Virus record (IMG/VR): IMGVR_UViG_3300036770_005682
Location: 64,001 to 128,000 of that record
Source: a virus
Length of the DNA stretch: 64,000 bases
Reading direction: 5' to 3' (one strand)
Below the pieces are notes generated by a model. The model was not told the origin of the DNA. It worked only from the letters and a program-made list of their open reading frames with translations, and ran no database searches. The translations under genes and the position numbers were made by a program. Of this stretch, positions 26,833 through 43,015 are shown piece by piece (positions within the stretch are counted from its first letter, which is position 1; each line of letters opens with the position of its first letter).

Positions 26833-26833
26833 C

Positions 26834-28637: not shown

Positions 28638-28643
28638 AGGTGG

Positions 28644-28688: not shown

Positions 28689-29097
28689 CCTACGTCCAGC
28701 CGATGACCTGTCGTTGCTGTGAGATGTCAGCCGCCGCAGCGATGACCAGCATCTCGTGGGCTGAGCCCCAGGTGGGCAAAAGCCCCGATGGGGTAATACC
28801 CCAGCACGGGGCTGCCAGGCGCAACCGGCCGGAAGGCCTCGATGGCCGGCCCTCCCCGAGTTATTCGAATAAGTTTTGGTCTTTGTCGAGCAAAAACGAC
28901 CACTTTTTGTGGTTTTTGGATAAATCCGACCACGGAAAGTGGTTTTTCCTAAAACTAAAACGGAAAAGTCGAGCTCAGCTCCTCGAGCTCACGTAGCTTC
29001 GCCAGCTATGCGGGGTTGTGGGGCGGGGCTCACAACCCCGACGCATCTACTTTGACGGTGGCGGAAGACGGCTAGCGCACCTGAGCCGAGACAGCAA

Positions 29098-29135
29098 CAA
29101 GCCCGCCGTGCGGGGGGAAGGGGCACGGCGGGCTT
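29098..29135 (-). terminator. Intrinsic terminator
   Basis: AAGCCCGCCGTGC...GCACGGCGGGCTT hairpin. Confidence 0.7.
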
Positions 29136-29155
29136 GTGCGATTGGTGAGAATGGA

Positions 29156-29518
29156 CTACTTCCAGCAGGCAGCGGAATAGACGACTTCGCTCAGGTTGTC
29201 GCAATAGACATCAAGCACTTCGTGCTCAACGACTAGCGTACCTTTCGCTTCGCCACGGTTCACGAGTCGGACACGGCGCACTTCGTACAGGTCTAGGTAG
29301 TTGAGTACCACCTCAACCGCACGACTCTCTCCGCACAGCATTAGCAAGCCAATGGTCACGCCATCGCTAGCGTTCACCTTTGCCCACTTTCCACCGCACA
29401 CAGCGAGAAAGGTCATCTTGCCCATTTGGGCTATGACCTCTTGCGGGTCGCAGTCACGACCTGAACGGTCAAGGTTGCGCAAGGCAATCAGAGACAGGTC
29501 GGTTTTCGTTGCTTTCAT
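29156..29518 (-). CDS. Cassette hypothetical phage protein
   Basis: GAAAGGGGGTG RBS; LDLYEVRR...DVYCDNLSE. Confidence 0.7.
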   Translation of the reverse strand: MKATKTDLSLIALRNLDRSGRDCDPQEVIAQMGKMTFLAVCGGKWAKVNASDGVTIGLLMLCGESRAVEVVLNYLDLYEVRRVRLVNRGEAKGTLVVEHEVLDVYCDNLSEVVYSAACWK

Positions 29519-29541
29519 TTCTTCACCCCCTTTCACCTTGC

Positions 29542-29586
29542 AGGGTACAAGTCGCAAGTGGGTAAGTCAATAGGACAAGTGTCACA
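29542..29586 (-). promoter_or_regulatory. Cassette promoter with CRP-like box
   Basis: TGTGA-N6-TCCTA abutting TTGACT-N17-TACCCT. Confidence 0.72.
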
Positions 29587-29597
29587 CTCGCCAGCCA

Positions 29598-29638
29598 GCC
29601 CGCCCGCACGCCCGCCCGCACGCCCGCCCGCACGCCCG
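29598..29638. repeat. 12-bp tandem repeat GCCCGCCCGCAC x3
   Basis: Seen directly in the linker. Confidence 0.8.
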
Positions 29639-29783
29639 TACGCACGCGCGCGTAAGAGTCCCGGACGGGATTTATTCCCGACGGGGCTCCCGCACGGGAT
29701 TGACGGTGGTGGAAGAGTTCCGATGCGGGCACAAACAAAATGCCCGCCCCCTTGCGGAGACGGGCAGTTCGTTGGAGTTTCAG

Positions 29784-30140
29784 TTAGCGGTCTGGATTCG
29801 GCGTTGCCTTCACCGTAAAAGTTCCGCTTGCATCGTGGTGGGCGAGGTGGCAAGTGAGCACTTTCGTTTCAGGGTCAAGCGAGTAACGCAATGACCATTC
29901 CGAACGGACAGTGATACTTTCCAACAACTTCATCGGAGTATCGGCGTGGAAAATGCCGTCTATCGTGCGTGCCCACAAAGGGAATCCTTCAATGCGCCAC
30001 CAAGTGTCGCCTTCGTGAAGTTCCTTGTTGTGTTCAAGCATGACTTCGGCAGTCATGGCAAACAAGTCTGTCGCCATGTCCCACTCCCACTCTTCGGAAG
30101 TGTTGCTTACCTCTTCCCACTCCAAGTCGGAGTCAAGCAT
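29784..30140 (-). CDS. Cassette hypothetical protein
   Basis: GAAAGGGGGG RBS; C-terminal HHDASGTF; terminator at 29737-29770. Confidence 0.7.
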   Translation of the reverse strand: MLDSDLEWEEVSNTSEEWEWDMATDLFAMTAEVMLEHNKELHEGDTWWRIEGFPLWARTIDGIFHADTPMKLLESITVRSEWSLRYSLDPETKVLTCHLAHHDASGTFTVKATPNPDR

Positions 30141-30170
30141 GACTCCCCCCTTTCATGAGTTGAGAATGAC

Positions 30171-30225
30171 AGACTACCGACTTAGTAGCGATTAGTCAAG
30201 TAGGCATCGTGTGACATTAGGCACT
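30171..30225 (-). promoter_or_regulatory. Cassette promoter with CRP-like box
   Basis: AGTGC-N6-TCACA 10 bp upstream of TTGACT-N17-TAGTCT. Confidence 0.72.
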
Positions 30226-30465
30226 TCCGAGTAAGACGATAAGAATAAGGACTACAAAGATAGGCACTAATGACATGACAGCAACTTACCGCACCTGAGC
30301 CGAAAAAACAACAACCCGATGTCGGCGATGTCGGGATGGGACGGGAGCCCCGGAGGCCCGCTGCCGGCCCACGGGGCTAACGGGTATCCGACGGTGGCGG
30401 AAGAAGGGCTCGCACTTCTCGTCGGGCTGACTTGGTCTGCTCAGTTTCAGTCGTGCTGTTTCGTG

Positions 30466-30542
30466 CGAACGCCTGTTCGGGTCGTGAGACGCTCTGCCCC
30501 TGTGTGTCTCATGCGAACACCTGTTCGGCGAACATCTGTTCT
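30466..30542. promoter_or_regulatory. Three LexA/SOS boxes (CGAAC-N4-GTTCG)
   Basis: 30466-30479, 30514-30527 and 30529-30542 (last ends GTTCT); matches the Gram-positive/actinobacterial LexA consensus. Confidence 0.75.
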
Positions 30543-30585
30543 GTGACAAACGACACTTGCAATGTGTCCTTGACACCTGTACCCT
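30542..30585 (+). promoter_or_regulatory. Cassette promoter with CRP-like box
   Basis: TGTGA-N6-ACACT overlapping TTGCAA-N17-TACCCT. Confidence 0.7.
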
Positions 30586-30590
30586 ACTAG

Positions 30591-30692
30591 GTGGGACAAC
30601 CTGCCCGCCTAGCCTGTGGTGAAGCGACCTGCGTCACGGGGGGAACTAGAAAAGGTAGGGGGTGCGCCGTAGGGAAGGCGTACCTGTCCCAC
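30591..30692 (+). ncRNA. Candidate structured 5' leader RNA
   Basis: GTGGGACA/TGTCCCAC closing stem; inner CCTGCC/GGTAGG and GGTGCGCC/GGCGTACC stems; starts at the predicted TSS. Confidence 0.45.
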
Positions 30693-30719
30693 TCAACATA
30701 AGAACCGAGAAGGGGAACC

Positions 30720-30896
30720 ATGACACGCAAAGATTATGTCTTGCTTGCCAGTCATCTCCGCTACGCTCGTACGGGCGTTTCCGTCTCTCTGCTTGCAGGG
30801 TTTGACGAAGCCGTAGAAGCAATAGCGGACGCACTCGCAAGTGAGAACCACCGTTTTGACCGCGATAAGTTTTTGGAAGCGGTGAACCCGAACTAA
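30720..30896 (+). CDS. Small phage early protein (MTRKDY...RFDRDKF type)
   Basis: 58 aa, below the ORF-track cutoff; GAAGGGGA RBS; terminator follows. Confidence 0.75.
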   Translation: MTRKDYVLLASHLRYARTGVSVSLLAGFDEAVEAIADALASENHRFDRDKFLEAVNPN

Positions 30897-30920
30897 ACAT
30901 TCCCAACACCACAGGCACAG

Positions 30921-30957
30921 AAAGCCCCATGCCGTTTGGCGTGGGGCTTTTTGTTTG
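30921..30957 (+). terminator. Intrinsic terminator
   Basis: AAAGCCCCATGCC-gttt-GGCGTGGGGCTTTTTGTTT. Confidence 0.8.
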
Positions 30958-31133
30958 CCCTCAACTCCCAGTCGGAACACCTCGCCAGATGGCTTTGATG
31001 GCATCTGGTAGCCCCGGAAGCCGTGCGGCAGCAACGGGGCTCCCACAGGAGTGCGACGGTGGTGGAAGTCCCCTGGTCTCCGCCTCTCCTCGCCTACCTC
31101 GCCCGCTGTCATCATTCGTCTGTCTCAAACTGA

Positions 31134-31178
31134 TGTGACAAACGTCATGTTGTGATGTGTACCTGACAGGTGTAGTGT
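31134..31178 (+). promoter_or_regulatory. Cassette promoter with CRP-like box
   Basis: TGTGA-N6-TCATG abutting TTGTGA-N17-TAGTGT; ATG 7 nt later. Confidence 0.68.
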
Positions 31179-31185
31179 GCTATGT

Positions 31186-31773
31186 ATGGAAACAGCAACG
31201 AAGGAAGCCATAGCACTACGGGTGCTTGCCGAATACTGGCAGACAGATGTAGCCCCAATGGTGAACCCACGAGCCTGTGTGCTTGCTGGACGCTTGGCGA
31301 CTGTTGTGCTTGGTCGCATCGGCATTTCCACCGCCGTCTACCACACCGACACCGTTGCTATGAATGACCTGTGGTACAACCTGTTCATCGTCAAGGGGCT
31401 TGGTCAGCAGTTCCTTCCCCCTGAGGCATGGTGTGTTGGTGCTGTCACCGCAGATGTCAAGGGAACGCACAGCACGATGGTTGGCGGTTTCAGCGGTCAC
31501 CTTGTTGTGACAACCCCGCACCACTTTGTAGACCTGAGCGCAAGCCAGTTTGACCGTCCCTCACATGACATCGTGACTGGCTCGCCACTCATCGTCCCCC
31601 GTGAGAACATCACAGACACGCCACATGGCAAGATGGTTCCGATACAGCGTGGTGTTTACATCACGAAGCCTGCCGAGAACCCTGCGTCATACCAATGGAC
31701 ACCCGACTGGCAGACCAACTACAAGACCTTTGCGAAGCCACTCATCACCCGCCTGCGGGAGATGTTCTCGTGA
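31186..31773 (+). CDS. Cassette hypothetical protein, possibly transglutaminase/papain-like
   Basis: ACVLA...GHLVV...VDLSASQFDRP gives a C-H-D order. Confidence 0.65.
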   Translation: METATKEAIALRVLAEYWQTDVAPMVNPRACVLAGRLATVVLGRIGISTAVYHTDTVAMNDLWYNLFIVKGLGQQFLPPEAWCVGAVTADVKGTHSTMVGGFSGHLVVTTPHHFVDLSASQFDRPSHDIVTGSPLIVPRENITDTPHGKMVPIQRGVYITKPAENPASYQWTPDWQTNYKTFAKPLITRLREMFS

Positions 31774-32027
31774 CCGTACGAGACTGGTACGAGTTTGTGG
31801 AAACGGACTTGGAGAACTACGAGCGTGAGAAGTTTCGTGAGATGCTGTCCGACATCGGCTTTGATGACCTGTATGTGGAACGCACCGATGACCACGGCAT
31901 TTGCTACTTGTGCGAGCGTGATGGAGTGTTGTACCTTGTAATGAACAGAGGACAACTGCGTGAGACAAATGCCTACTACCTTTGCTCTACCTGTACTAAC
32001 GAGATGAAGCGAAAGACCGAAGAATGA
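31770..32027 (+). CDS. Zn-finger hypothetical protein
   Basis: GTGA overlap; CYLC...CSTC. Confidence 0.6.
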   Translation: MTVRDWYEFVETDLENYEREKFREMLSDIGFDDLYVERTDDHGICYLCERDGVLYLVMNRGQLRETNAYYLCSTCTNEMKRKTEE

Positions 32028-32182
32028 CCGGAATGTTGTATTCGCAGCGCAACGCACACTCATGCCCGTGGGGGTGCTGTGGCGATTTCGTCAAGGGTCG
32101 TGGAACGAAGCACCGCTGTAAGAAGTGGCATCGCATCTTGCGTACCCGTGAGAAGCGCAACTGGAAGAAAGAGGAATGGTGA
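32024..32182 (+). CDS. Small basic Cys-containing protein
   Basis: 52 aa MTGMLYSQRNAHSCPWGCC...; ATGA overlap. Confidence 0.5.
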   Translation: MTGMLYSQRNAHSCPWGCCGDFVKGRGTKHRCKKWHRILRTREKRNWKKEEW

Positions 32183-32649
32183 CTGCACCCGAATACGAAA
32201 GTTGGTGGGACAGCGATGCTGGCAAGCCCGCCAGTCTCTGCGATGCCTGCGGGCAGAAGCAACTACTAACCCAACAGACATCGCCCGCCCTTCCTGATGG
32301 GGGCTGGATTATGGAGTTTGAGCATTTCGGCTATTACGGCGGGTTCTCTGACGACATTGAGGTTGCGTTTGGCAAGCGAGACAGTAACTCATGGTCGCTT
32401 TGCCATGACTGCGTTGTGAAGTTCTTTGAGACATTCCCTGCGCTAGCGGAGAAGTTCGGTCGGGGGCACCACCCCAACTTCATTCACACAGACGACCTGC
32501 CGTACAGTGAGCGAGGCACATCTAGCCCGTCATGCTGTCGCTTTGCGTGGACATGGAATGTGACCGTTGAGAACGGAGAGAAGGTCTACGAGACTTTCTA
32601 CGGAGATGGCACAGGTGGCTGGGTTGCCCAGTCTAAGGAGCGAGTCTGA
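32176..32649 (+). CDS. Zn-binding hypothetical protein
   Basis: CDACG...GYYGGFSD...LCHDC. Confidence 0.65.
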   Translation: MVTAPEYESWWDSDAGKPASLCDACGQKQLLTQQTSPALPDGGWIMEFEHFGYYGGFSDDIEVAFGKRDSNSWSLCHDCVVKFFETFPALAEKFGRGHHPNFIHTDDLPYSERGTSSPSCCRFAWTWNVTVENGEKVYETFYGDGTGGWVAQSKERV

Positions 32650-32695
32650 TGGTTGTCAGCATCGTCGCCCTGATAGCCATCCTTCTGCTGTTGTC

Positions 32696-32908
32696 CTAGA
32701 ACAGCATTTCCCCGCTACTGCCCTCTTTCTTTTTTCTGCTTGTCTCTGTCTCTACGCAGATGGAGTGGGCGTACTTGTGCTGGTTCTTCACGCCCCTGAT
32801 GCCTGTGTTGTTGTCACGCACCCACGCCAACACGAGTTTCATAGTTCCACTTTGGTTCGGAACTACCTCTTGGTCACAGAACTCACATCGGAAGCGAACG
32901 TACGACAT
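32696..32908 (-). CDS. Zn-ribbon hypothetical protein
   Basis: CEFC...HSIC. Confidence 0.45.
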   Translation of the reverse strand: MSYVRFRCEFCDQEVVPNQSGTMKLVLAWVRDNNTGIRGVKNQHKYAHSICVETETSRKKKEGSSGEMLF

Positions 32909-33047
32909 TATGGAAATAATACCGGCCGGGGCTCCCGAGCGCAACAGCATCTTCTTTGACGGTGGTGGAAGAAGCCCCTGAACGGGGACAGCAGAAAGCC
33001 CACACCCGTTTCCGAGTGTGGGCTGACTGTTGGAAGCGAGTTGTGCG

Positions 33048-33503
33048 CTAGTTGTTCTTGGCGATGAGTTGGTAAAGCGTGGAGAGCAGAGCGTCTGCGA
33101 GAGAGCCGTGCGCTTCACCTTCGTCTGTCATCGGTTCATCGGGGTCGTGCTGAAAGACGACTGCCGAACCCATTGTTCCGTCACGCTCAACGCAAGCACA
33201 GAGACGCACACGCTGACGGAGTGGGTGCTGGCTTGGTGCGCCTTCCACTTCGCCGTTGGAGTTGAGTGGGGAAGCCCACCCCGTCGTCAGGACACCAATG
33301 CCCTGCTCGTACTCCTGAATGTTCTCAATGCTCGGCAGGCTCGCAAGCCCTTCGTAGATGTCTCCTGCTGTCGCAAGGACACGGAAGCCGTCGGCACAGT
33401 ACGCAAACAGGACTGCCTGTTCCATACTGAAACCTTCGTCTCCTTCCTTGGAGAGTGAGTGCTGGGCGAGTAACGCCATACGCACAGGTGTTGGTGTTGT
33501 CAC
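33048..33503 (-). CDS. Cassette hypothetical protein
   Basis: GAAAGGGG RBS; terminator at 32995-33025; GWASP...PSQHPLRQRVRL. Confidence 0.72.
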   Translation of the reverse strand: MTTPTPVRMALLAQHSLSKEGDEGFSMEQAVLFAYCADGFRVLATAGDIYEGLASLPSIENIQEYEQGIGVLTTGWASPLNSNGEVEGAPSQHPLRQRVRLCACVERDGTMGSAVVFQHDPDEPMTDEGEAHGSLADALLSTLYQLIAKNN

Positions 33504-33533
33504 TTGTTCCCCTTTCGTAGTGGTGACAGTTAC

Positions 33534-33578
33534 ACACTACACAGAACACAAACAAATGTCAATGTGTCGTTAGGCACA
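33534..33578 (-). promoter_or_regulatory. Cassette promoter with CRP-like box
   Basis: TGTGC-N6-ACACA abutting TTGACA-N17-TAGTGT. Confidence 0.75.
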
Positions 33579-33769
33579 GCCGGCAAGTCCAAACTTTGAC
33601 CGAGTCCAAACTTTGAGCAGGTCAAGACCGACAAACCGGAACGCCGGTGACATCTGGGGCTGAGAGCCCCGCGCCCCGCCGCAGCCCAACGGGGCTCCAC
33701 ACCACTTTGACGGTGGCGGAAGAAGCCCTCGTGTGCGCCTGCGTGTGTGCGCCTGCGTGTGTGCGTGAA

Positions 33770-33824
33770 TGTGCCGAATGTCACTACGCACCCCTATTGA
33801 CTTGCTGTTCCTGTCAAGTACACT
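33770..33824 (+). promoter_or_regulatory. Cassette promoter with CRP-like box
   Basis: TGTGC-N6-TCACT 11 bp upstream of TTGACT-N16-TACACT. Confidence 0.7.
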
Positions 33825-33856
33825 CAACAACACCTACTAACCGAAGGGACGGAACA

Positions 33857-34441
33857 ATGGGAATGGACGTAATCGGGAAGAACCCGAAGAACAAGAAGGG
33901 CGAATACTTCCGCAACAATGTGTGGTGGTGGCGACCCCTGTGGCAATACTGCGAGTATGTCGCACCCGAACTGACCGACAAGGTGGAATACGCTGGCTCT
34001 AATGACGGAGACGGGCTGGACGGAGATGACGCTCGCAAGTTGGGCAACGCTCTGCGGAAAGAACTCCGCAAGGGCATGACCGCCGTGTACATCTCTGCTC
34101 GTCAGGAATACTTGGACAGCCTGCCTGTTCGCCCGTGCGCCCATTGTGAGGCAACGGGAACTCGCAAGTGGCTGGTCAATGCCACTACAAACGAGCGCAA
34201 GCCGGCTGTGACCTACAACTTCTTGGAAGCGTTCACCAACGAGCAGACGAACAACGGGCAACTGCCGACTTACGAGTACCACACGCCCGAAGAAGGCTGG
34301 GTGGAAGAGACAACCGAATGTAATGGTTGTGAAGGCACGGGTGGACAGCCTGCGTGGGAACGCTCGTACCCCCTCACCGAAGAGAATGTTCGTGAGTTCG
34401 CCACCTTCTTGGTGAACTGCGGTGGATTTGAGATTTGGTGA
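33857..34441 (+). CDS. Phage early hypothetical protein with DnaJ-like CxxCxGxG motifs
   Basis: GEYFRNNVWWWRPLW...CAHCEATG...CNGCEGTG...GGFEIW. Confidence 0.78.
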   Translation: MGMDVIGKNPKNKKGEYFRNNVWWWRPLWQYCEYVAPELTDKVEYAGSNDGDGLDGDDARKLGNALRKELRKGMTAVYISARQEYLDSLPVRPCAHCEATGTRKWLVNATTNERKPAVTYNFLEAFTNEQTNNGQLPTYEYHTPEEGWVEETTECNGCEGTGGQPAWERSYPLTEENVREFATFLVNCGGFEIW

Positions 34442-34659
34442 TGACCCCCGTACATGACCTTGTGCTGCGCTTCATGCGCTCAAACCTCATTGGCAAGCGT
34501 GTCACTTTGTTGTTCACTTCCGACCCCTACACCAACCTCACACGGGGTGATGAAGGCGTTGTGGACTACATTGACGACATTGGTACTGTGTTCGTCAAGT
34601 GGGACAACGGCTCTCGCTTGGGTCTTGTGGAAGGAGAAGATTTGTGGACATACAACTGA
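34441..34659 (+). CDS. DUF4314-like SH3-fold protein
   Basis: GKRVTL...DPY..L..GDEGVVDYIDDIGTVFVKWDNGSRLGL. Confidence 0.75.
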   Translation: MTPVHDLVLRFMRSNLIGKRVTLLFTSDPYTNLTRGDEGVVDYIDDIGTVFVKWDNGSRLGLVEGEDLWTYN

Positions 34660-34898
34660 CAGATGAATGGGCTGACATCTCTATTGCTGAGTTGGCTGAC
34701 CTCATGGAAGAGAACTACTACCTGCTCGCAAGTACGGGTCAGGACGCTTTTTTGGCGTTCGCAGATGATGTGTTGCGTGGTGCGTTCACCGAGTATCACG
34801 GCATGAGCGAGGAACGGACTGCTTTGCTCATGGTTGAGTTTGTCAAGCGTATGGTTCTTGTGTGGGACAAGCCTGCCGTGCCTTACGAGGTGCGCTAA
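34644..34898 (+). CDS. Hypothetical protein
   Basis: AAGGAG RBS before GTG. Confidence 0.6.
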   Translation: MDIQLTDEWADISIAELADLMEENYYLLASTGQDAFLAFADDVLRGAFTEYHGMSEERTALLMVEFVKRMVLVWDKPAVPYEVR

Positions 34899-34963
34899 TG
34901 CTGTGGTTTATCGGTATGTCGGCACTCGCTAGTCTTATTTTGTACCTGCGCTTCTCTGACTAA
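34898..34963 (+). CDS. 21-aa hydrophobic micropeptide
   Basis: MLWFIGMSALASLILYLRFSD; TAATG overlap, GAGGTG RBS. Confidence 0.45.
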   Translation: MLWFIGMSALASLILYLRFSD

Positions 34964-35010
34964 GTTCTCCAACAGGGGTAATCCGTCCCCCCTTTCACCT
35001 CTGTTGGACT

Positions 35011-35056
35011 GAAACCCCCAAGTCGTGTCTCACGCTGGCACGGCTTGGGGGTTTTC
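35011..35056 (+). terminator. Intrinsic terminator
   Basis: GAAACCCCCAAGTCGTG...CACGGCTTGGGGGTTTTC. Confidence 0.75.
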
Positions 35057-35246
35057 TCATGTCCGAACTTCGGTGGCCATCTACGGCCAGCATCACAGAT
35101 GGTAAATACGACCCGCCGGGGCTCCCGCCCGCCCGCCCGTCACTACTTTGACGGTGGCGGAAGAGCAGGGACACGAGAGTGGGTACACGAGAAAGGGGTC
35201 GCCCACCGCATTTGGCAGGCGACCCCTTAGCAGGGACGGTCAGTTG

Positions 35247-35822
35247 TCAGTTCTGCGAGTTCTGATAGGCGTGACACGCCTTCGTGAAGGCACGGAAGAT
35301 GTCGGAGACAACGCCGTGGAGTTCTCCATCAGCGATGTCAGGCTCGTCATACACAGGCAGTCCGTTGTCGTCATAGCGATAGAACACGGTCGCACCGATG
35401 GGTTCTCCGTCCCACGGATACACGCTGACGATGATGCCTTCACGAACATCGGTGGAAGGGTTCGTCTTGTATTCCTCTTCGTACGCACCACGGTCGTGAT
35501 TTTCCAACTCTTCTTCGGTCACACTTCCAGCAGGCTTGGCGTAGCCTTCCACGATGTAGGCGAGCCACTTCCAGCGAACAGACTGAAAGTTGTCCACCAT
35601 TCCTTCTGCGAGTCCTGACAACATCAACGGCAAGGTGTCGGTCGGGTGTCCTTCCATCAGGTCGGGCATAATGAAGCCGTCACCGCTCGGCAGTTCACCA
35701 ACAAGGGTGGGCGGTGCGTCCGTTATCCCTTTGTTCTCTTCACAGATGCCGTACTTGGCTTCCATCGCACGGGCAACGACAGCCAACAGAATGTCTGTTG
35801 GCGTCATCTCTTCTTCTTCCAT
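35247..35822 (-). CDS. Acidic cassette hypothetical protein
   Basis: AAGGGGG RBS; terminator at 35192-35228. Confidence 0.72.
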   Translation of the reverse strand: MEEEEMTPTDILLAVVARAMEAKYGICEENKGITDAPPTLVGELPSGDGFIMPDLMEGHPTDTLPLMLSGLAEGMVDNFQSVRWKWLAYIVEGYAKPAGSVTEEELENHDRGAYEEEYKTNPSTDVREGIIVSVYPWDGEPIGATVFYRYDDNGLPVYDEPDIADGELHGVVSDIFRAFTKACHAYQNSQN

Positions 35823-35857
35823 TTGGTTCCCCCTTATGGGTAGTAGGTACAGGTGTC

Positions 35858-35901
35858 AGTTTATGGTGTGTCCAACCTGTTGTCAAGTGCCATCGGTCAC
35901 A
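35858..35901 (-). promoter_or_regulatory. Cassette promoter with CRP-like box
   Basis: TGTGA-N6-GCACT overlapping TTGACA-N17-TAAACT. Confidence 0.75.
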
Positions 35902-36064
35902 CGCCTGAAACTTGGAGTCAGTCCAAAGTTTGAGCAAGTCCAGCCCGCACCACGAGCCAGAAGGTCTGGCTGAGGGCAGAAGCCCCGCGCCCCGATGCTG
36001 CCGTCCGGGGCTCATCAGCCTGACGGTGGCGGAAGAAGCCCCTGCGCCCTGTACCCTGTACCGT

Positions 36065-36226
36065 ATGGGTCGGCGTAAGCACATCGCACAACCGAAATGG
36101 ACGGCAGACGAGCGCACAGCGTTCGGTGATGGGGTGCGTACACGAGCAAGCACCGTGCCTGACAAGCGCAAGCGGGAGAGCAAGCGAGCCTGCCGACAGC
36201 CTGTGACGGACGACACAGAGAAATAG
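36065..36226 (+). CDS. Small basic protein
   Basis: TACCCT -10 seven nt before ATG; RASTVPDKRKRESKRACR. Confidence 0.55.
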   Translation: MGRRKHIAQPKWTADERTAFGDGVRTRASTVPDKRKRESKRACRQPVTDDTEK

Positions 36227-36295
36227 TTGCTTTTCGTGTGTGGGGTGTGTAGTGTTCCCCTTGTACCTGACACCCACAGCAGGAAGCGATAAGGG

Positions 36296-36350
36296 TGTGG
36301 CGAATGTCACACAAGAACCTATTGACAAGTGCTTGTGTCCCCTGTAAGGT
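36296..36350 (+). promoter_or_regulatory. Cassette promoter with CRP-like box
   Basis: TGTGG-N6-TCACA 10 bp upstream of TTGACA-N17-TAAGGT. Confidence 0.75.
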
Positions 36351-36388
36351 ACACATTGTCCACAAGTCCCCAAACAAGAAAGAAGGAA

Positions 36389-36811
36389 ATGACCGTGGCA
36401 CACTCAGTAGAGCAGGCAACCCGCCTGTACCTGTTGGCAAAGGAAGCCAGCGCACAAGCGGAAGCACAGAAGAAGGAAGCGGAACAGGCGTTGCGTGAGG
36501 CACTCGCCATCGCAGGCATCAGCGCAAGCGTGGTGGACGGCATCAAGGTCGCCATCGTGGAAGGCGAGCGCAAGTCCTACGACGCAGACAAGTTGGCGAT
36601 GCTCGTGAAGCCCGCCACCTACAAGAAGGTCACCAAGCCCGTCGTGGACGGGGAGATGCTCGCAAGCGCAGTCAGCGTTGGCATCATCTCGCAGGAAGTG
36701 GCAGACACCATCACAAAGGTCACCACCTACTCGCAGGTGCGTACCACCGCCGTCTCGCCCGATGCGAAGGCGAAGTCCCTGTCCGACAACGGCAAGGCGC
36801 AGGTCGCCTAG
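36389..36811 (+). CDS. Hypothetical protein with N-terminal coiled coil (Gam/Gp157-like architecture, tentative)
   Basis: AGAAGGA RBS; helical N-terminus followed by a beta-rich region. Confidence 0.65.
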   Translation: MTVAHSVEQATRLYLLAKEASAQAEAQKKEAEQALREALAIAGISASVVDGIKVAIVEGERKSYDADKLAMLVKPATYKKVTKPVVDGEMLASAVSVGIISQEVADTITKVTTYSQVRTTAVSPDAKAKSLSDNGKAQVA

Positions 36812-36952
36812 CACCCACAAGTCTCGTGTGGGGTGGGAGACACCGCAGATGCTCGCCCACCCCACACAAGAAAGTGGCTACGCAGGTTGTGACTATCAAC
36901 CGAAGTGGCTACACTCCACAACACCAACAACTCCCACGAAAGGGGAACCCCA

Positions 36953-37693
36953 ATGACAAGTGTGGCAGACACACAAGAGACACTTCCCGCCTGTTGGCAG
37001 GAAGTCCACGATGCGCTGGAAGCGGGCATTGACCGCCTTATCCTGTTCGGCGTTCCAGGAACAGGCAAGACCTACGCAGGTCTGAACTACGGCAACACCG
37101 ATGCGGGTGCGTTCCGTCTCATCTGTACCGATGACATGACCAACGCCGATGTGACAGGGTGCTGGCAACCCAATGACCACGGCTCGTGGTCGTGGCTGGA
37201 AGGCTCGGCTATCCGTGCGTGGAAAGGCGATGGCACAGTCGGTGGTCGTCTCGTCATTGACGAGATAGACAAGGCTGGTGGCGATGTGTTCGCTACCCTG
37301 CTTGCGATGACCGACAGCCCTGAGAGCGCAAAGTGGGAACACCCGCACACCCGCAAGGTGTTGCGCCCCAACGCAGGTTTCAGCGTGGTGATGACCACCA
37401 ACATTGAGCAGATGAGCGACCTGCCGATGGCACTCAAAGACCGTTTCCCCGTGTGCGTCCGTATCAACGAACCGCACCCGTCAGCACTCGCCCGTCTGAG
37501 CGAGGACTTGCGTGACTACGCCCGTCAGATGGCAGACGCAGGCGAACGCCGTATCTCTCTCCGTGCGTTCTACGCCTTTGACCAACTGCGTACCGCACTC
37601 GGCACGAAGCGGGCGGCGCAGATGGTGTTCCGTGACCGTGCTAAGAGCGTGGTGGACGCTATCGCCATCAACACCATGACCCCGCAGAAGTAG
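36953..37693 (+). CDS. MoxR/CbbQ/NorQ-type AAA+ ATPase
   Basis: GVPGTGKT Walker A, LVIDEIDKA Walker B, TTN sensor, ALKDRF. Confidence 0.88.
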   Translation: MTSVADTQETLPACWQEVHDALEAGIDRLILFGVPGTGKTYAGLNYGNTDAGAFRLICTDDMTNADVTGCWQPNDHGSWSWLEGSAIRAWKGDGTVGGRLVIDEIDKAGGDVFATLLAMTDSPESAKWEHPHTRKVLRPNAGFSVVMTTNIEQMSDLPMALKDRFPVCVRINEPHPSALARLSEDLRDYARQMADAGERRISLRAFYAFDQLRTALGTKRAAQMVFRDRAKSVVDAIAINTMTPQK

Positions 37694-37698
37694 GGGTC

Positions 37699-39231
37699 AT
37701 GTCCAAGAGCAACGAAACGCCTGTTGAGGCGACCATCAAGAAAGGCGCAACGCCACAGTATCCCGAACCTGAGATGCTGTCTCGTGGTGACCTGACTGCC
37801 ACAACCGACAACAAGCGTTGGAACATCGTGAATGTCCAACCTGTGCGTGGCGAGCCAATGACGGAAGTGACGCACCGTGAGATGCGTGTGCCGATGTACG
37901 ACACCGAACACTCACGCCACATACGGGCGCACGAGATGACCCACGCCAAAGTCTCGCCAACTGCGAAGCAGTTTGAGAAGTGGGTCGCTCGTGGCTACGC
38001 CAAGCCCGCAACGCTCGTGCGCTGTGAGGAACTGCGTGTGAATGTGCTGTGCGCCCGTGCGGGCTTTGAGCCGATGACGCACCTGACGGACGGAAGCGAG
38101 TATCTCGCAGGCAAGCGCACAGCAGAGGCGAGCGACTTTCAGAGTGCCGTGCTGGACGCTATCTCGTTCCGTGGCACGGCAGGATACGCACCGTACTTGG
38201 AAGGGGTGAAGCAGGTGAAGCCGATGTGGGCAGACCTGCTGGAAGCCATCTCCAAGACGGGCGAGGACTACTTCACGAGCGTCACCGACAACCCACGCTC
38301 GCAACCGCAACTGTGGGACACCCACAGCCGTCTCCACTTGTCAGGCTTTGGCTATGTGGAGAACTACGCCAAGTGGGTAGAAGAACAGGTGGGTGCGCTG
38401 TGCGACAACCCGACAGGCGAGCCACAACCACAGCCCGCAGGCAAGGAAGGCGAGGGCAAGGAAGGCGAGGGCAAGCAACCTGACAAGTCACCTGCCGAAG
38501 CAACTGCCAACGCAGGTGAACGCCTGACGCAAGACCGGTGGGGTCGTGGCAGTATCCCGAAGCGTGGTCGTGCGACCTTGTGGGAAGAACTGCGTGTCGC
38601 CACGCCTGCGTTGGAACGGAATGTGATGGGTGCTATCGGGCGCAAGCGTGTGGCATCGCAGACAGGGCGCAACCCACGCCGTCTGTCTCGTATGCTCACC
38701 GACCCTGAGAAGCGCATCTTTGACCGCACCGTGAAAGGCGCAGGTGGCGTGGTACTCATTGACACAAGCGGGTCAATGTCGCTAGACCACGATGAAGTGA
38801 TGGCGATGGTACTGAACGCACCGTCAGCACTCGTGGCGCAGTATTCGGGTGGCAAGCCATCACGCCCCAACCTGTATGTGGTCGCCAACAAGGGCAAGTG
38901 TGTGAACCAACTCCCGACACCGAATGGTGGGAACGGAATGGACGCACCCGCCTTGCGTTGGGCTATCTCCAAGCGTCAGCGCAACACCGCACCTATCATT
39001 TGGGTCACAGATGGTGGGGTCACGGGCAAGGGCGATGGCTGGTACGAGGACTTGGCGATGGAATGTATCAACCTTGTGAAGCGTCACGGCATCTACACCG
39101 CCGAAACGCCTGAGCAGGCTATTGAGATGTTGCGGGCGATGTCAAAGGGCGAGAAGGTCAAGAGCATTGTGCCATCGCACCTGTCAGCCGTCTATCAGTC
39201 CATCACGGGTCACGAACTGACCTTCCGCTAG
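37699..39231 (+). CDS. vWA-domain partner of MoxR with N-terminal HExxH motif
   Basis: HEMTH; LIDTSGSM MIDAS; WVTDG. Confidence 0.82.
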   Translation: MSKSNETPVEATIKKGATPQYPEPEMLSRGDLTATTDNKRWNIVNVQPVRGEPMTEVTHREMRVPMYDTEHSRHIRAHEMTHAKVSPTAKQFEKWVARGYAKPATLVRCEELRVNVLCARAGFEPMTHLTDGSEYLAGKRTAEASDFQSAVLDAISFRGTAGYAPYLEGVKQVKPMWADLLEAISKTGEDYFTSVTDNPRSQPQLWDTHSRLHLSGFGYVENYAKWVEEQVGALCDNPTGEPQPQPAGKEGEGKEGEGKQPDKSPAEATANAGERLTQDRWGRGSIPKRGRATLWEELRVATPALERNVMGAIGRKRVASQTGRNPRRLSRMLTDPEKRIFDRTVKGAGGVVLIDTSGSMSLDHDEVMAMVLNAPSALVAQYSGGKPSRPNLYVVANKGKCVNQLPTPNGGNGMDAPALRWAISKRQRNTAPIIWVTDGGVTGKGDGWYEDLAMECINLVKRHGIYTAETPEQAIEMLRAMSKGEKVKSIVPSHLSAVYQSITGHELTFR

Positions 39232-39345
39232 ACCGCACAGGCGGACTGTTCCCCCACCCACAGGGACAGCCCGCCCAAGCGTGGCGGGCGGGTGGCACTT
39301 CCCCCTTTCAGTCACCCGCCCGCCTGAACACGAAAGAGAACGCAG

Positions 39346-39507
39346 ATGAAGTGGAACACCACAGCAGTCATGGGTCACATTGTTGAGACTGTGACCACCG
39401 AAGCAGACGACATTGACACCGCAACGGAGATGGCATACGACCTGCTGGAAGGCAAGGGCTATGACCTGTCAGCCTTTGACGAAGTGACAACGGAGAGCGA
39501 GCGATGA
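39346..39507 (+). CDS. Small acidic hypothetical protein
   Basis: 53 aa, GAAAGAG RBS, ATGA overlap with the next gene. Confidence 0.55.
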   Translation: MKWNTTAVMGHIVETVTTEADDIDTATEMAYDLLEGKGYDLSAFDEVTTESER

Positions 39508-39764
39508 GCAAGTACCGTGTTCAGGTCATGGTCGGCGTAGATGTCTCAGCCGACACAGATGGCGAGGCGATGGTGAACGCCGTTGCGAAGGTGCGTGGCA
39601 TTATCGGGGAGAACCCGACAGAGCCAATGCCGAAGGAAGCGTGGGTGACGGGCATCGCACTTGCCGACCCCGCACATTGGCATCACACGAGCGTTGAGGG
39701 GTACATGGTATTCCGACAGCCCGACCGAGCCGAGGACAACTCTTTGACGGTGGCGGAAGACTAG
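39504..39764 (+). CDS. Hypothetical protein; 3' end contains a polar motif copy
   Basis: ORF track; motif at 39743-39760. Confidence 0.6.
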   Translation: MSKYRVQVMVGVDVSADTDGEAMVNAVAKVRGIIGENPTEPMPKEAWVTGIALADPAHWHHTSVEGYMVFRQPDRAEDNSLTVAED

Positions 39765-39988
39765 TCGCTGAACACTTTTTTGTCGTAGATGCGTAGGGCA
39801 TTTACGGCAAGGCTGGTCACGGCGCACTTCCAGTAAGGTGCGTTCCAGTCTGTGATGTCAGACGAACGCAAGAACCACAGCACAACCCACAGCACTCCGC
39901 CGTAAATAGAACCCGCAAGTCCAGCCCCTGCTAGCGTAACTAAGAACGCTGGTTTGGGGCTGTTTGTTATCTCAGGGTGTTTAGGCAT
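39761..39988 (-). CDS. Small membrane protein
   Basis: Start moved to MPKHPEIT; hydrophobic segment. Confidence 0.5.
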   Translation of the reverse strand: MPKHPEITNSPKPAFLVTLAGAGLAGSIYGGVLWVVLWFLRSSDITDWNAPYWKCAVTSLAVNALRIYDKKVFSD

Positions 39989-40355
39989 TGACGGTCTTGC
40001 CCAAGCGGTTGATGATTTGGTGAACGCGCTGGCGCGACAACCCGTACTCATCACCGATGCTTTGGAGCGACCTGCCATTTTGACGGGCAACGAGCATGGC
40101 GTTGTCCCTGTCGGGATTACCTGATGGGCCGGGCTTACATGGCCCCCATGCCCACCCTGCGAACTTCTCCAACTGTGCGATGCGCTCAGGAGACAGAGTG
40201 CCTGCCCGATACTTGATACGCACATAGGTCACCCATGACCCAAGTGAAACTGTCTCTCCGTCCACCGAACACTTGTACGAGGTCGGTACAAGGGCTGTTC
40301 CGTGTTCTGAAACGTAGGTGGATAGTGCTTGAATGTTTTTGTCCCATCGGCTCAT
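39981..40355 (-). CDS. Helicase-associated (HA) domain fused to a sigma-region-4-like HTH
   Basis: WDKNIQALSTY..EHGTALVP...LGSWV...LSPERIAQLE; SLQSIGDEYGLSRQRVHQI. Confidence 0.75.
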   Translation of the reverse strand: MSRWDKNIQALSTYVSEHGTALVPTSYKCSVDGETVSLGSWVTYVRIKYRAGTLSPERIAQLEKFAGWAWGPCKPGPSGNPDRDNAMLVARQNGRSLQSIGDEYGLSRQRVHQIINRLGKTVNA

Positions 40356-40554
40356 AGTCTTGACATTACTCGACCGGCCACCGGCTGCGGCGGAACCGGC
40401 TTGACAGCCCCGCGATGCGGCCGCCAGCTTCCGGGGCCCCTGATGACGGTGGTGGAAGACAGGGCCGGCCCTCGAGAAAGTTTTCGCCACGTGTTGCATT
40501 TGTCAGTTGTACTGGGTAGTGTGACGGCACCACTTCACAAGGAAGGAGAAGGAA

Positions 40555-40764
40555 ATGGAAACCTATGACAAAGAAGCAGTAGAGAAACTGCAACCAGAGA
40601 AAGCACGGGGGGAAGTGGGAGTGCTCTCAATGGAAGGACTAGATGTCGGCGTCAAAATCGCAGACGTTCGTGTCCGCTTCGGTCATATTGATTACCTAGT
40701 CAAGCCACTCAACGGCAAGGGCGAGGTATGGGTGGAGCGCCACCGTGTCAAAGTGATGGCGTGA
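40555..40764 (+). CDS. Hypothetical protein
   Basis: Promoter TTGCAT-N17-TAGTGT at 40494-40522; strong RBS. Confidence 0.68.
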   Translation: METYDKEAVEKLQPEKARGEVGVLSMEGLDVGVKIADVRVRFGHIDYLVKPLNGKGEVWVERHRVKVMA

Positions 40765-40803
40765 CAAACGTCACTTGACAAACTGGCTTGTGGGGTGTAG
40801 CGT
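40760..40803 (+). promoter_or_regulatory. Promoter with near-consensus CRP-like box
   Basis: CGTGA-caaacg-TCACT overlapping TTGACA-N17-TAGCGT. Confidence 0.78.
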
Positions 40804-40844
40804 GTACCCCACAAGTCACTACTTATCTATTAGCAAGGGGAACA

Positions 40845-40994
40845 ATGTCAGACGAACTGACCTACTGGAACTGCCACAAGTGCAAGGACACTTGGGAGCC
40901 GTACTACGGCATGCTGAGCATCAAAGACGATGTCACGCCCGCCATCATCATCTACACCTGCATCAACTGTATGCCAGACGACGAGGAGGAATGA
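40845..40994 (+). CDS. Small Zn-ribbon protein
   Basis: CHKC...CINC; AAGGGGA RBS. Confidence 0.55.
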   Translation: MSDELTYWNCHKCKDTWEPYYGMLSIKDDVTPAIIIYTCINCMPDDEEE

Positions 40995-41155
40995 TGCGTA
41001 CCCTCATCATCACACTCACCACACCCGACGAGATTGACCCATCAGAGGTCGCTGAAATCATGGTTGACGACTTTTACTACTCAAACCGTGCTACCGAGGA
41101 CTTCGGCCCGCACATGGAGGAGATTCTCATCTCATGGAAGGAAGAAGAGAAATGA
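40991..41155 (+). CDS. Small acidic hypothetical protein
   Basis: GAGGAGG RBS; ATGA overlaps. Confidence 0.55.
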   Translation: MMRTLIITLTTPDEIDPSEVAEIMVDDFYYSNRATEDFGPHMEEILISWKEEEK

Positions 41156-41472
41156 GAGCCATAGCAAGCGCTCCGATGCGCATCATGCCCATTACTGAAG
41201 CGATAGAAATCCGCTTCAGTTCCACGTCATACAAAGGCGACGTCACAAAATGGCAACTGCTCGCCAGCGTGAACACAAACGGCACCATCTCCTACACGCT
41301 TCACCGTGTTCCCCGTGCCTCGTACGGTTACTCATTGACCAGCCTTGTGGGTACCTCTCGTGTGATTCTTCCGATGAAGGCCTACGATGGGTGGCACGGC
41401 GATGTTCTTGAGTGGGTTCGTGACCACACTCTGTCAGGCAAGACCGTCTACGAGATTGAGAAGGTGCTCTAA
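41152..41472 (+). CDS. Hypothetical protein
   Basis: Coupled ORF. Confidence 0.6.
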   Translation: MRAIASAPMRIMPITEAIEIRFSSTSYKGDVTKWQLLASVNTNGTISYTLHRVPRASYGYSLTSLVGTSRVILPMKAYDGWHGDVLEWVRDHTLSGKTVYEIEKVL

Positions 41473-41930
41473 TGGCTACGCGTTCTGTTGTCGCTCGCTT
41501 GACTGAAAGCGGTATTGAGGGTCGCTACGTTCATTGGGATGGTTACCCCATCCACATGATGACAGCGCTCTACGAGTTGATTCGCCGTGACGGCTACGAG
41601 ACCGTCACACGTGTTCTTCTTGACGAACACGACGGGTGGTCATCCATCAACCCGTTCCAAGAAGAAGACGACGACACGATTGGACACGTGGAGACGCTTG
41701 AGTACTGGGGCAAGTACTACACGGACACACCGAACGAACCATTCTTCACGACATTGAGCGAGGCGTACGACGCTTGGGCGGAATACGTGTACATCATCGT
41801 CGCAGAGGGTGAACAGCCTGTGGAGATTCGCTGTTACCGCCAAGACACAGACGAACCGATTCAGGTGATGCAGGTGCTGTGCGACCATGAATACGACTCG
41901 TACTGTGCGAACTGCGGGGTGGACTCATGA
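41472..41930 (+). CDS. Phage early hypothetical protein (YxHWDGYP family)
   Basis: MATRS...YVHWDGYP...EYVY. Confidence 0.75.
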   Translation: MATRSVVARLTESGIEGRYVHWDGYPIHMMTALYELIRRDGYETVTRVLLDEHDGWSSINPFQEEDDDTIGHVETLEYWGKYYTDTPNEPFFTTLSEAYDAWAEYVYIIVAEGEQPVEIRCYRQDTDEPIQVMQVLCDHEYDSYCANCGVDS

Positions 41931-42070
41931 AAGATTTGATTGAGGAAATCATCAACATTCTCAACTTGCCTGGTGAGCAATACACAGACGGCGAATGCCT
42001 GGACCTCATCGCAGAGTTGTTGACGGAAAATGGATTTGAAGTTTTTGAGGAGCAGAATGAAAGCGCATGA
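41927..42070 (+). CDS. Small acidic hypothetical protein
   Basis: 47 aa; TDGECLDLI; ATGA overlap. Confidence 0.5.
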   Translation: MKDLIEEIINILNLPGEQYTDGECLDLIAELLTENGFEVFEEQNESA

Positions 42071-42308
42071 ACTCATCAAGCAATTGATGGAACTTCCGCC
42101 AGACGAGCCCGTCTGTGCACTCGTGTGGACAAAAGCAGAGTTTGATTTCAACGACGAGTATGACGAGTTGGAATTGACCCCCGAGGGTTGGCAAAAGGTC
42201 TGCGACGACTTCTACAGTTCCCTGAACGTGCTGTGCCACACGATTGACGAAAGTCTCAACAACGCAGTATTGGACTACGCAATAGAAAAGAGTTTTGATG
42301 CCGAGTGA
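42057..42308 (+). CDS. Acidic hypothetical protein
   Basis: MKAHELIKQLMELPPDE; GAGGAG RBS. Confidence 0.6.
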   Translation: MKAHELIKQLMELPPDEPVCALVWTKAEFDFNDEYDELELTPEGWQKVCDDFYSSLNVLCHTIDESLNNAVLDYAIEKSFDAE

Positions 42309-42705
42309 ACAAGTACTCGTAAACGACGACGGGGAAATCCAATGCATATGCATGAACGAGCCGTCGTGGGATGGGTTCAGCGCATGCCACCGCAATGGCC
42401 AAGTGGATGACAATCTGCTTTCAAAGCACAACGTCGACAGCGTCTACTACCTGTGTCAGCGCTGTGGCCGAATCATTAACGAAACAACCCTCGAGGTTGT
42501 GGCAGTGCTGCAGTCAGATGAAGAAAATTTTGATGACCTGTTCACTGCGGCCGTCGGGATGAAGGAACGTGCACACCGCATAGCCCAGCAGGCGCTGGAG
42601 GAGAAACCATGGAACGTCGAGGAAATGATGGGTGACCTCTCGAGTATCGAGCGACTTCTGGTGTGCCTCCAGAAGGTGAAACTCCAGGAGCTCCAAACGT
42701 TCTGA
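42295..42705 (+). CDS. Zn-binding hypothetical protein
   Basis: CICMN...CQRCGRII. Confidence 0.6.
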   Translation: MMPSEQVLVNDDGEIQCICMNEPSWDGFSACHRNGQVDDNLLSKHNVDSVYYLCQRCGRIINETTLEVVAVLQSDEENFDDLFTAAVGMKERAHRIAQQALEEKPWNVEEMMGDLSSIERLLVCLQKVKLQELQTF

Positions 42706-43015
42706 CAACTCTTTTACGGTGGTGGAAGAGGTTGTAATTACATAACGAAGTAGCTATTATGACTAAACAAATGCTGACGCCTGATATGACGCTCCGCTCG
42801 ACACTGTGCGAGCTCAAGAAATTTGAACACCCTCCAGTGAGCCGCTTTAAATTAGGCAGTCCTTGTCGTTTCATCCGAACAATTGACATATTTGTCCACA
42901 TCGTTATCCCCGAACTTGTGGAAAAACCTTTTCCACATCTCGCGCGATATCTGCGCAACACATCCCCTCGCTGGGGCCGCAGCTGGCGGCACTGGTAACT
43001 ACAGAAAGGAAAACC

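Follow-up and report, generated by a model that had tools for sequence, protein, structure and literature searches.

A virus genome from IMG/VR carries a zone of about 15 kb that is nearly emptied of short palindromic words. The zone spans 26,692-42,081, with a core at 29,005-40,024, of a window of 64,000 nt, i.e. bases 64,001-128,000 of the virus contig IMGVR_UViG_3300036770_005682 (137,811 bp in all). The window is the whole stretch under analysis, and all coordinates refer to it unless genome positions are named. Codon context, palindrome specificity and upkeep across diverged relatives support the depletion as a product of selection on word content, and selection against restriction targets is well supported as its cause. 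Our reading, put forward with moderate confidence, is that the zone is a set of immediate-early hyperplastic cassettes, near-free of Type II targets, which are needed intact and expressed before the phage counter-defences are in place. Restriction enzymes as the selective agent, the early timing and the order of DNA entry are parts of this reading that we infer.

Word content, codon choice and borders of the zone

When the 136 strand-symmetric 4-mers in 29,001-40,000 are ranked by their ratio to a second-order Markov expectation, the bottom 12 are all palindromes, with observed/expected ratios of 0.00-0.29. Six of them (AATT, ATAT, GATC, TATA, TCGA and TTAA) are absent from these 11 kb and the other six are rare (AGCT 1, ACGT 3, TGCA 5, GGCC 5, CGCG 6 and CCGG 14), which makes 34 sites observed versus ~470 expected. 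The ratio in the zone is ~0.07 for the 12 purged words and 0.29 over all 16 4-bp palindromes; GCGC (0.69), CTAG (0.79) and GTAC persist, and CATG is halved. Counted in sliding windows, the 16 palindromes together amount to 10-23 per kb between 27 and 40 kb, down from 40-65 per kb, with the Markov expectation for this interval unchanged at 50-65 per kb. The longest stretches without any of the 12 words are 2,530 and 1,490 bp in the zone versus no more than 211 bp in the remaining 121 kb, where the mean spacing between sites is 26 bp. No comparable stretch occurs elsewhere in the 137.8-kb genome, so that the depletion is local, as an earlier note on this DNA had held.

That note had given word counts for two segments, and every one of them was correct on our recount. 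The 2,871 bp at 36361-39231, with a guanine-cytosine content (GC) of 0.598, have zero AATT, ACGT, AGCT, ATAT, CGCG, GATC, GGCC, TATA, TCGA, TGCA and TTAA and retain 1 CCGG, 21 GCGC and 9 GTAC. The same absent words are also at zero in the 835 bp at 31186-32020, which have GCGC 1, GTAC 5 and CATG 3. One word must be taken off the list of zone traits where the note had put it: GATC is at zero in all 137,811 bp, with ~328 expected outside the zone, and its absence is therefore a genome-wide trait.

The depletion extends to longer and interrupted palindromes. We counted 23 palindromes of 6 bp in 29,001-40,000 versus 182 expected from base composition, and eight 6-mers built on the retained cores (CCATGG, GCATGC, AGCGCT, GGCGCC, GGTACC, AGTACT, CCTAGG and TCTAGA) are all at zero. 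The observed/expected counts of the interrupted forms are 8/73 for CCNGG, 2/73 for GGNCC, 10/73 for GCNGC, 11/41 for GANTC and 2/23 for TTNAA. An unbiased 5-mer scan over the zones of four lineages found GGWCC 0 times versus 98 expected, and the ten most depleted 5-mers include GGWCC, CASTG, CCWGG, GANTC, GCNGC and TTSAA, with GCWGC just below them. Six of these ten are halves of palindromic sites with W, S or N in them, and GGATG and GGAGG/CCTCC are also among the ten. Most of these words are recognition sites of known Type II restriction enzymes, and the spectrum as a whole matches the target class of such enzymes. AT-only and GC-only palindromes are equally purged.

GGAGG/CCTCC, the Shine-Dalgarno core, is an exception to the palindrome specificity of the depletion, with 1 observed versus 99 expected on both strands over the zones of the window and of three relatives (contigs L001, L003 and L005). 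AGGAG is low as well in these four zones (11 versus 84 expected). Since GGAGG is not palindromic, it may be avoided as another kind of target or as an internal ribosome-binding site.

The codon-level evidence comes from shuffling the synonymous codons within each gene 1000 times, which keeps the protein and the codon usage. Zone genes have 0-2 sites versus 10-58 in the shuffles. The gene of a 510-amino-acid (aa) protein has 1 site versus 58 ± 5.8 (minimum 39), and the neighbouring AAA gene has 0 versus 33. For 13 of the 15 open reading frames (ORFs) called in 29,156-39,764, no shuffle was as low as the observed count, and the two shortest gave shuffle P values of 0.009 and 0.056. The earlier expectation that the depletion would survive both Markov and codon correction is thus borne out. 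So is its remark on ATT and TTT before GA- codons. Isoleucine in this position is coded by ATT 10 times and by ATC 0 times in the zone versus 19/49 elsewhere, and phenylalanine by TTT 10 times and TTC 0 times versus 17/40 elsewhere; the T-ending form is used in 20 out of 20 cases, though the C-ending form dominates elsewhere. Control genes do use ATC-GA (14/38).

The zone has three parts and two site-dense spacers:

26692-29004: left margin, with an abrupt border after the last normal site cluster at 26,636-26,691 in the site map
29005-40024: purge core, in which most surviving sites lie in GC-rich hairpins 30-60 nt upstream of a one-way box
40025-42081: graded right margin with fading depletion
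28825-29004: site-dense spacer with 20 purged words in 180 bp, CCGG/GGCC first and then AGCT/TCGA runs
40370-40495: second site-dense spacer, which surrounds a box copy

The earlier note had the zone run over 29156-42300 with a gradual fade. The fade is indeed seen, at 40,025-42,081, but the left start is not where it was placed, as the depletion sets in abruptly at 26,692, just after a divergent gene (26281-26622). The left margin is purged apart from the site clusters at 27151-27224 and 28825-29004. In the right margin ACGT, TGCA, GGCC, CCGG and CGCG reappear first, and AATT, TTAA, ATAT, TATA, TCGA and AGCT remain rare up to 42,081. The right-margin genes are partly purged (3-6 sites versus 6-16 in shuffles), and the gene at 42295-42705 is normal (20 versus 16).

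By the ORF calls made here, which were picked from ORF lists with approximate start codons, 38% of the zone lies between genes. The observed/expected ratio is 0.04 in genes and 0.29 in spacers. Depletion is seen in 14 of the 16 spacers; the other two have about the expected number of sites or more, i.e. 28,665-29,155 (20 sites versus 23 expected) and 40,362-40,550 (16 versus 9.5 expected). The GC of the zone is 0.56-0.60 versus 0.48-0.50 in the flanks. GC skew was also tried as a border marker; its profile tracks gene orientation and is uninformative on the zone borders.

Our sequencing evidence consists of assembled contigs rather than reads, the form in which 16/16 listed runs are stored, and four runs were compared with the window. 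Adaptor remnants in run X4 have the look of tagmentation. Both zone borders are spanned by contigs from three runs, and the assembly is therefore not chimeric. The assembly of run X3 divides at 26044-26218 and again at 41056-41179, near both borders, each time into two variant contigs of 124-175 nt, and the contig between the splits has a depth of 45 versus 63 and 58 in the flanks. These splits and the lower depth suggest a co-occurring strain with the same flanks but a different zone.

Cassettes, promoter-like sites and a one-way box

The following features make up the zone or run through it:

36389-39231, plus strand: conserved trio of a 140-aa ORF (36389-36811), an AAA_5 MoxR-type ATPase (36905-37693) and the 510-aa partner (37699-39231, phrog_33218), from Pfam and PHROGs
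35247-35822, minus strand: self-contained cassette for a 191-aa acidic protein, net charge -25
29156-29557 and 29784-30140, minus strand: two cassettes, the second acidic (-15), each bracketed by box copies
33048-33503, minus strand: acidic cassette, with a promoter-like site at 33562 (minus)
33860-34441, 34435-34659 (DUF4314) and 34599-34898, plus strand: one unit, with a promoter-like site at 33797 (plus)
39981-40361, minus strand: helicase-associated (HA) and Sigma70_r4-type helix-turn-helix protein (Pfam, scanned as ORF 39981-40499), where the deep purge ends
26834-27028, 27693-27965 and 28440-28664, minus strand: small left-margin cassettes with long spacers between them
27446-45994, all on the plus strand: box array, 17 copies of ACGGTGGYGGAAGA, 14 exact and 3 with one mismatch (0.05 expected)

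The trio is the most deeply purged stretch, with 1 site in 4 kb. We scanned 14 ORFs in 29,156-41,930 against Pfam, 12 of them in the purged core and two in the graded right margin, and the only matches were AAA_5, DUF4314, HA with Sigma70_r4, and one weak SNAPC3 match below the cut-off. A NCBIfam search of ten ORFs (nine in the core and one in the right margin) gave a single match, which is below its cut-off. DUF4314 and DUF932 proteins both occur in this genome, and we take these to be families typical of conjugative elements.

The 191-aa gene has 0 purged words versus 17 in shuffles and a promoter-like site, TTGACA-17-TAAACT, 36 nt upstream. Its protein has 23 unnamed homologues, 18 of which were aligned (P0004, P0009, P0011, P0015 and P0017 were omitted by choice). 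A confident model (pLDDT 88.9, pTM 0.85) predicts an alpha/beta fold, for which Foldseek gave no match to the PDB at E <= 0.001. The best hit of a wide VIA-align search, a pseudopilin with Z 5.8, lies within the noise range stated for the tool. Several of the cassette proteins are strongly acidic, and the acidic ones include those of 29784-30140, 33048-33503, 35247-35822 and 41472-41930. DNA mimics are strongly acidic too, and this acidity might be a faint sign of DNA mimicry. Anti-defence roles of the zone ORFs may be presumed from their position; the earlier note had ranked these ORFs as anti-defence candidates, for which homology gives no support.

Promoter-like sites of the form TTGACN-N16-18-TANNNT cluster in the zone. 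There are 23 of them in the genome on both strands, and 13 lie within 27,089-40,775; the zone is 11% of the genome, yet it has 13/23 of these sites, and the structural modules are almost without them. Seven of the 13 precede a start codon of their own strand by 8-39 nt and have as -10 hexamers TACATT, TACACT, TAGTCT, TAGTGT, TAAACT and TAAGGT, which avoid TATA (0 in the core). A promoter-like site and a terminator-like hairpin accompany each cassette. A T7-type RNA polymerase (PF00940) was not found in the genome by a search whose control also matched nowhere, sigma-70 region 2 was not found in the genome either, and Pfam showed no virion RNA polymerase in the four giant head proteins. The clustering of these sites and the lack of a detected phage polymerase or sigma factor suggest that the host polymerase reads the cassettes directly, i.e. 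early, and such early transcription of the zone is plausible as far as the sequence tells.

The Pfam matches in the four giant head proteins are Zeta_toxin, DnaJ, NUDIX, HTH_23, RNase_T and a DUF3626 below the cut-off. The 3,462-aa protein (genome 50408-60796, L124) has NUDIX, HTH, DnaJ and Zeta-toxin-type kinase domains, with DnaJ and NUDIX as its only PDB relatives. A 1,713-aa protein of the head module carries an RNase_T exonuclease domain, and the 2,459-aa head protein has no Pfam match and no PDB sequence match. The giant head proteins may be ejected effectors that could shield the incoming DNA.

The box copies sit at the cassette joints on the plus strand irrespective of gene orientation, typically 10-25 nt after a conserved CGGGGCTCC hairpin arm, and the array reaches 4 kb past the purge. 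The exact 16-base form was found in at least 117 viral contig stretches, of which we used those that were also retrieved with proteins. The Chi site of E. coli contains GGTGG. The box also holds GGTGG, and by this analogy it would be worth testing whether the box takes part in blocking exonucleases in one direction or in the entry of the DNA. As a sigma-70 promoter the box does not hold up, as it gives TTGACG but no conserved -10 element at 16-18 nt. The tRNA genes were rejected as its source, with 0/12 of them in the zone.

Other repeats are found near the borders, where repeat-bearing site-dense spacers lie at 28,175-29,004 and 40,370-40,495. A 63-nt repeat, 73% alike between its copies at 28175-28237 and 28899-28961 in two left-margin spacers, reads ACCACTTTT.GTGGTTTTTG ... 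CCACGGAAAGTGG and adjoins the site-dense patch at 28,825-29,004. A GC-rich tandem repeat with GCCCGCCCGCAC-like units of 8-12 bp lies between two cassettes at 29589-29661, and the contigs of runs X1 and X2 break there.

Relatives and genome context

All six viral contigs that encode the 510-aa protein (68-77% identity) have the zone, the box and no GATC. They represent three lineages, as L001, L002 and L006 form a near-identical group and L004 resembles L005. The word spectrum is common to the zones of the window, L001, L003 and L005. Between the window and these three relatives, 28-50% of the four-fold sites in the AAA and 510-aa genes differ, while each copy has 0-2 sites versus 15-47 in simulated neutral synonymous drift. 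The purge has been kept despite this divergence, so selection is ongoing in each lineage. The order of the cassettes differs between the window and L001, and the identity to the same relative is 77% in the zone and 91% in the neighbouring SNF2 gene.

We also profiled 10 of the 21 loci found with the SNF2 protein. Five of them (89-99% identity) have the same abrupt left border as the window, ~1 kb past the SNF2 gene. Two (63-64%, L145 and L146) are depleted of ACGT, AGCT, CCGG, GATC, CGCG and GGCC across their whole 18-22 kb, the SNF2 gene included; their spectrum is narrower, as AATT, TGCA and ATAT are retained, and they are without the box. This pattern looks like genome-wide rather than local avoidance. 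The remaining three (53-60%) are unpurged, with abundant GATC. GATC is absent in the 13 closer loci (the six 510-aa contigs and L132, L133, L137, L140, L143, L145 and L146), and the distant L147, L149 and L150 have 89-136 GATC per ~20 kb. The trio adjoins the SNF2 gene also in the unpurged L147 and L150, in which the AAA and 510-aa genes have 15-30 sites each, about half the shuffle expectation. The block is therefore of ancestral origin, and its purge arose where it now lies.

The ends of the contig overlap by ~100 bp, so the assembly closes on itself, and IMG/VR classes the genome as complete with direct terminal repeats. Its genes include a portal-MuF fusion, a prohead protease, an HK97-type capsid and a large terminase (genome 22.3-23.6 kb), and there are also 12 tRNAs, a class II ribonucleotide reductase, a primase-helicase, the SNF2 helicase and three WhiB-family genes:

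Genome 82298-82495 (window 18298-18495): WhiB-family gene
Genome 67661-67861 (window 3661-3861): WhiB-family gene
Genome 110073-110264 (window 46073-46264): WhiB-family gene

The nearest cultured portal/terminase relatives are phages of Gordonia, Brevibacterium and Streptomyces and psiM2, mostly actinophages, at ~40% identity. It is these relatives and the three WhiB genes that point to Actinobacteria as the probable host, with freshwater or subsurface members as candidates. At only ~40% identity, the relatives allow no inference on the packaging type. No near-identical phage was found in GenBank phages by megablast with two 8-kb queries, and tblastn gave no relative of the 510-aa protein in cultured phages. 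Four runs hold most of this DNA, three of them labelled as subsurface metagenomes and one as soil. A full-length homologue of tryptophan halogenase is encoded at 60422-61903 on the minus strand (Pfam E 2.4e-100), an unusual cargo for a phage.

Explanations, known systems and meaning

In the mechanism that we propose, the unmodified host RNA polymerase would read the cassettes from their host-type promoters once the DNA is inside the cell. A local purge would pay only if the remaining chromosome, with a 4-bp palindrome per ~26 bp, is shielded meanwhile, and the likeliest shield would be that it is still outside the cell owing to staged or slow one-directional entry. Entry from near 26.7 kb rightward would make the left border sharp and let the depletion fade on the right. 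The abrupt left border, the graded right border and the rightward orientation of 17/17 boxes fit such an entry. The DNA methylase families PF01555, PF00145 and PF02086, which could have protected the DNA in another way, were not found in the genome. A more specific proposal places the start of staged delivery near 26.7 kb, at a point that looks internal but would be the physical end, with no T5-style terminal duplication, the boxes as directional entry or exonuclease-blocking signals and the desert as the footprint of the DNA exposed before counter-defence. We consider this tentative, a possibility with less than even chances.

Several observations weigh against reading the zone as early, first-entering and restriction-driven. 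It keeps residual sites (14 CCGG, 6 CGCG, 5 GGCC and 5 TGCA besides GCGC, GTAC, CTAG and CATG) and two site-dense spacers. None of the 14 ORFs scanned with Pfam in 29,156-41,930 belongs to an anti-restriction family, and the evidence for promoters is a match to a consensus. The self-closing assembly also fits headful packaging with permuted ends, which would leave no fixed first segment, and the zone is ~67 kb away from the terminase gene. The genome ends are judged from assembled contigs, which carry no read starts, and the first-injected status of the zone is again something that we infer. The contigs break at the simple repeat at 29,589-29,661 and at strain bubbles, none of which is a candidate end. 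The contig depth, a coarse measure with one figure per contig, is 45 in the zone versus 63/58 in the flanks for X3, 63 versus 82 for X1 and 199 versus 187 for X2. As the depth shows no doubling, a collapsed long terminal repeat, and with it the T5 layout, is excluded for the zone. Rightward entry from 26.7 kb would also bring in the left-hand replication genes last, which would be unusual.

A different account keeps the early expression and drops the order of entry: the whole chromosome would enter, the early cassettes would stay transcribable, and their products (anti-restriction, anti-exonuclease or repair) would rescue the infection or help co-infecting kin. The self-contained cassettes, each with its promoter-like site and terminator-like hairpin, agree with this account, and so do the deeper purge of genes than of spacers (0.04 versus 0.29), the two site-dense spacers and a circular assembly compatible with permuted ends. 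On the other hand, the depletion of 14/16 spacers indicates that the entire stretch is protected and not the gene bodies alone, and with a palindrome per ~26 bp elsewhere any matching enzyme would cut the genome into many pieces. The rescue of DNA cut into so many pieces is implausible. We hold this account to be rather unlikely. We think it quite improbable that the early block avoids the targets of nucleases which the phage brings or induces for destroying host DNA, as for T5 A1. Such self-immunity has been proposed for the first-step-transfer DNA of T5, according to the available part of a preprint (10.1101/866236). The giant head-module proteins bear enzyme domains, including the RNase_T-type exonuclease, and the avoided spectrum is in our judgement far wider than the restriction repertoire of one host would usually need. 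But no nuclease of such specificity was identified in the genome, a dozen palindromes and several 5-mers would require many nucleases, and the remaining genome would still need to be shielded. In addition, the ordinary DNA of the relatives has lineage-specific avoidance spectra, as host-driven restriction pressure predicts.

The block might also have been recombined in from a wholly purged relative, the pattern being inherited rather than a local adaptation. The depletion of L145 and L146 over whole loci, the higher GC of the zone, its faster evolution than that of the SNF2 gene and the reshuffling of cassettes among relatives are in line with import. The spectrum of L145 and L146 is a different one, however, as they retain AATT, TGCA and ATAT; the trio is an ancestral one that unpurged relatives have in synteny, and the borders are common to several lineages. 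The purge moreover persists at 28-50% four-fold divergence, at which drift would have restored 15-47 sites per gene. We regard the import as slightly less probable still than self-immunity. Practically no weight is left for a compositional artefact, be it through higher GC, codon bias or amino-acid content. The GC of the zone does exceed that of the remaining genome, but the low Markov ratios are confined to 12 palindromes, AT-only and GC-only ones are purged alike, and synonymous shuffles never match 13 of the 15 ORFs and rarely match the other two.

The principle that restriction acts through the DNA which enters first has been shown in other phages (the cited sources were available in part). 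T5-like phages are restricted only through sites in the first-transferred DNA, and sites placed in the first-transfer DNA of T5/BF23 confer sensitivity (PMC10644984). In Autographiviridae early-injected motifs decide the sensitivity to Type I systems (PMC12455610). The earlier note had taken the first-entering DNA of T5 and T7 to be purged, which overstates the case. In T5 the first-step-transfer DNA has 627 4-bp palindromes in 9.1 kb, 0.84 of the Markov expectation versus 0.98 in the next 30 kb. In T7 the ratio is 0.77 in the early region versus 0.75 in the rest (6-mers 0.59 versus 0.65), i.e. palindromes are avoided evenly along the genome. The pre-early block of T5/BF23 (Tequintavirus) consists of ~10 kb of small genes, mostly of unknown function, which are transcribed from host-type promoters in divergent units, and it has repeat-rich non-coding DNA at its border (PMC10644984 and the T5 record). 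In these traits it would resemble our zone with its promoter-like sites and repeat-bearing spacers. It differs in being unpurged (0.84, compared with 0.29 overall and ~0.07 for the 12 words here) and in lying inside a duplicated 10-kb terminal repeat, whereas the depth of our zone is not doubled. T7-like phages resemble the present case in that early-entering DNA decides restriction sensitivity and that all T7 promoters point in the direction of entry (PMC12455610 and the T7 record). Here 17/17 boxes are co-oriented, but the box has no conserved -10. T7-like phages differ in their phage RNA polymerase, of which none was found here by the search whose control matched nowhere, and our zone has genes on both strands.

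Under-representation of Type II targets in phages has been described as a passive means of escaping restriction (Rusinov et al. 2018, PMC6286503). That avoidance is genome-wide, whereas here it is regional, sharply bounded and covers nearly all 4-bp palindromes, and the rest of the genome avoids only GATC completely. The hyperplastic regions of T4-type phages contain PeSL cassettes; each holds a small, non-essential early gene together with a sigma-70-like promoter and a stem-loop, and recombination at repeated junction elements reshuffles the cassettes among relatives (PMC2839356). Our cassettes are likewise self-contained, differ in order from those of L001 and are joined at a repeated element. 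The junction element here differs in being an asymmetric one-strand box that is not obviously the promoter, and the available part of PMC2839356 does not mention palindrome depletion. In conjugative plasmids the leading region is the first DNA to enter; its GC is higher, and anti-defence genes are enriched in it. For this region the available part of the preprint reports no clear difference in 4-bp palindromes, a weak 6-bp signal and no systematic depletion (10.1101/2025.04.03.647016). Our zone is similar in its higher GC, and DUF4314 and DUF932 proteins occur here; it differs in that the depletion is near-total. We found no description of a regional near-total palindrome purge in the literature searched, with subscription journals and supplements outside its range. 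The zone is a new and extreme variant of a known principle, far more extreme and more sharply bounded than what is seen in T5, T7 and plasmid leading regions.

Avoidance of restriction sites is usually measured over whole genomes, and here it is regional, sharply bounded and nearly complete. As T5 and T7 are without a comparable local purge, the idea that DNA entering first must be invisible can be tested more cleanly by nature's own experiment in this lineage. About 20 cassette ORFs without a known family, one of them with a confident fold that lacks a clear solved relative, are targets for anti-restriction screens. If the desert marks the DNA exposed ahead of counter-defence, scanning the genomes of uncultured phages for palindromes in sliding windows could find their pre-early regions. 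Such a scan could also hint at the leading end and yield a shortlist of anti-defence candidates. If staged entry is true as well, the injection order and the pre-early anti-defence gene set of uncultured phages would be readable from sequence alone.

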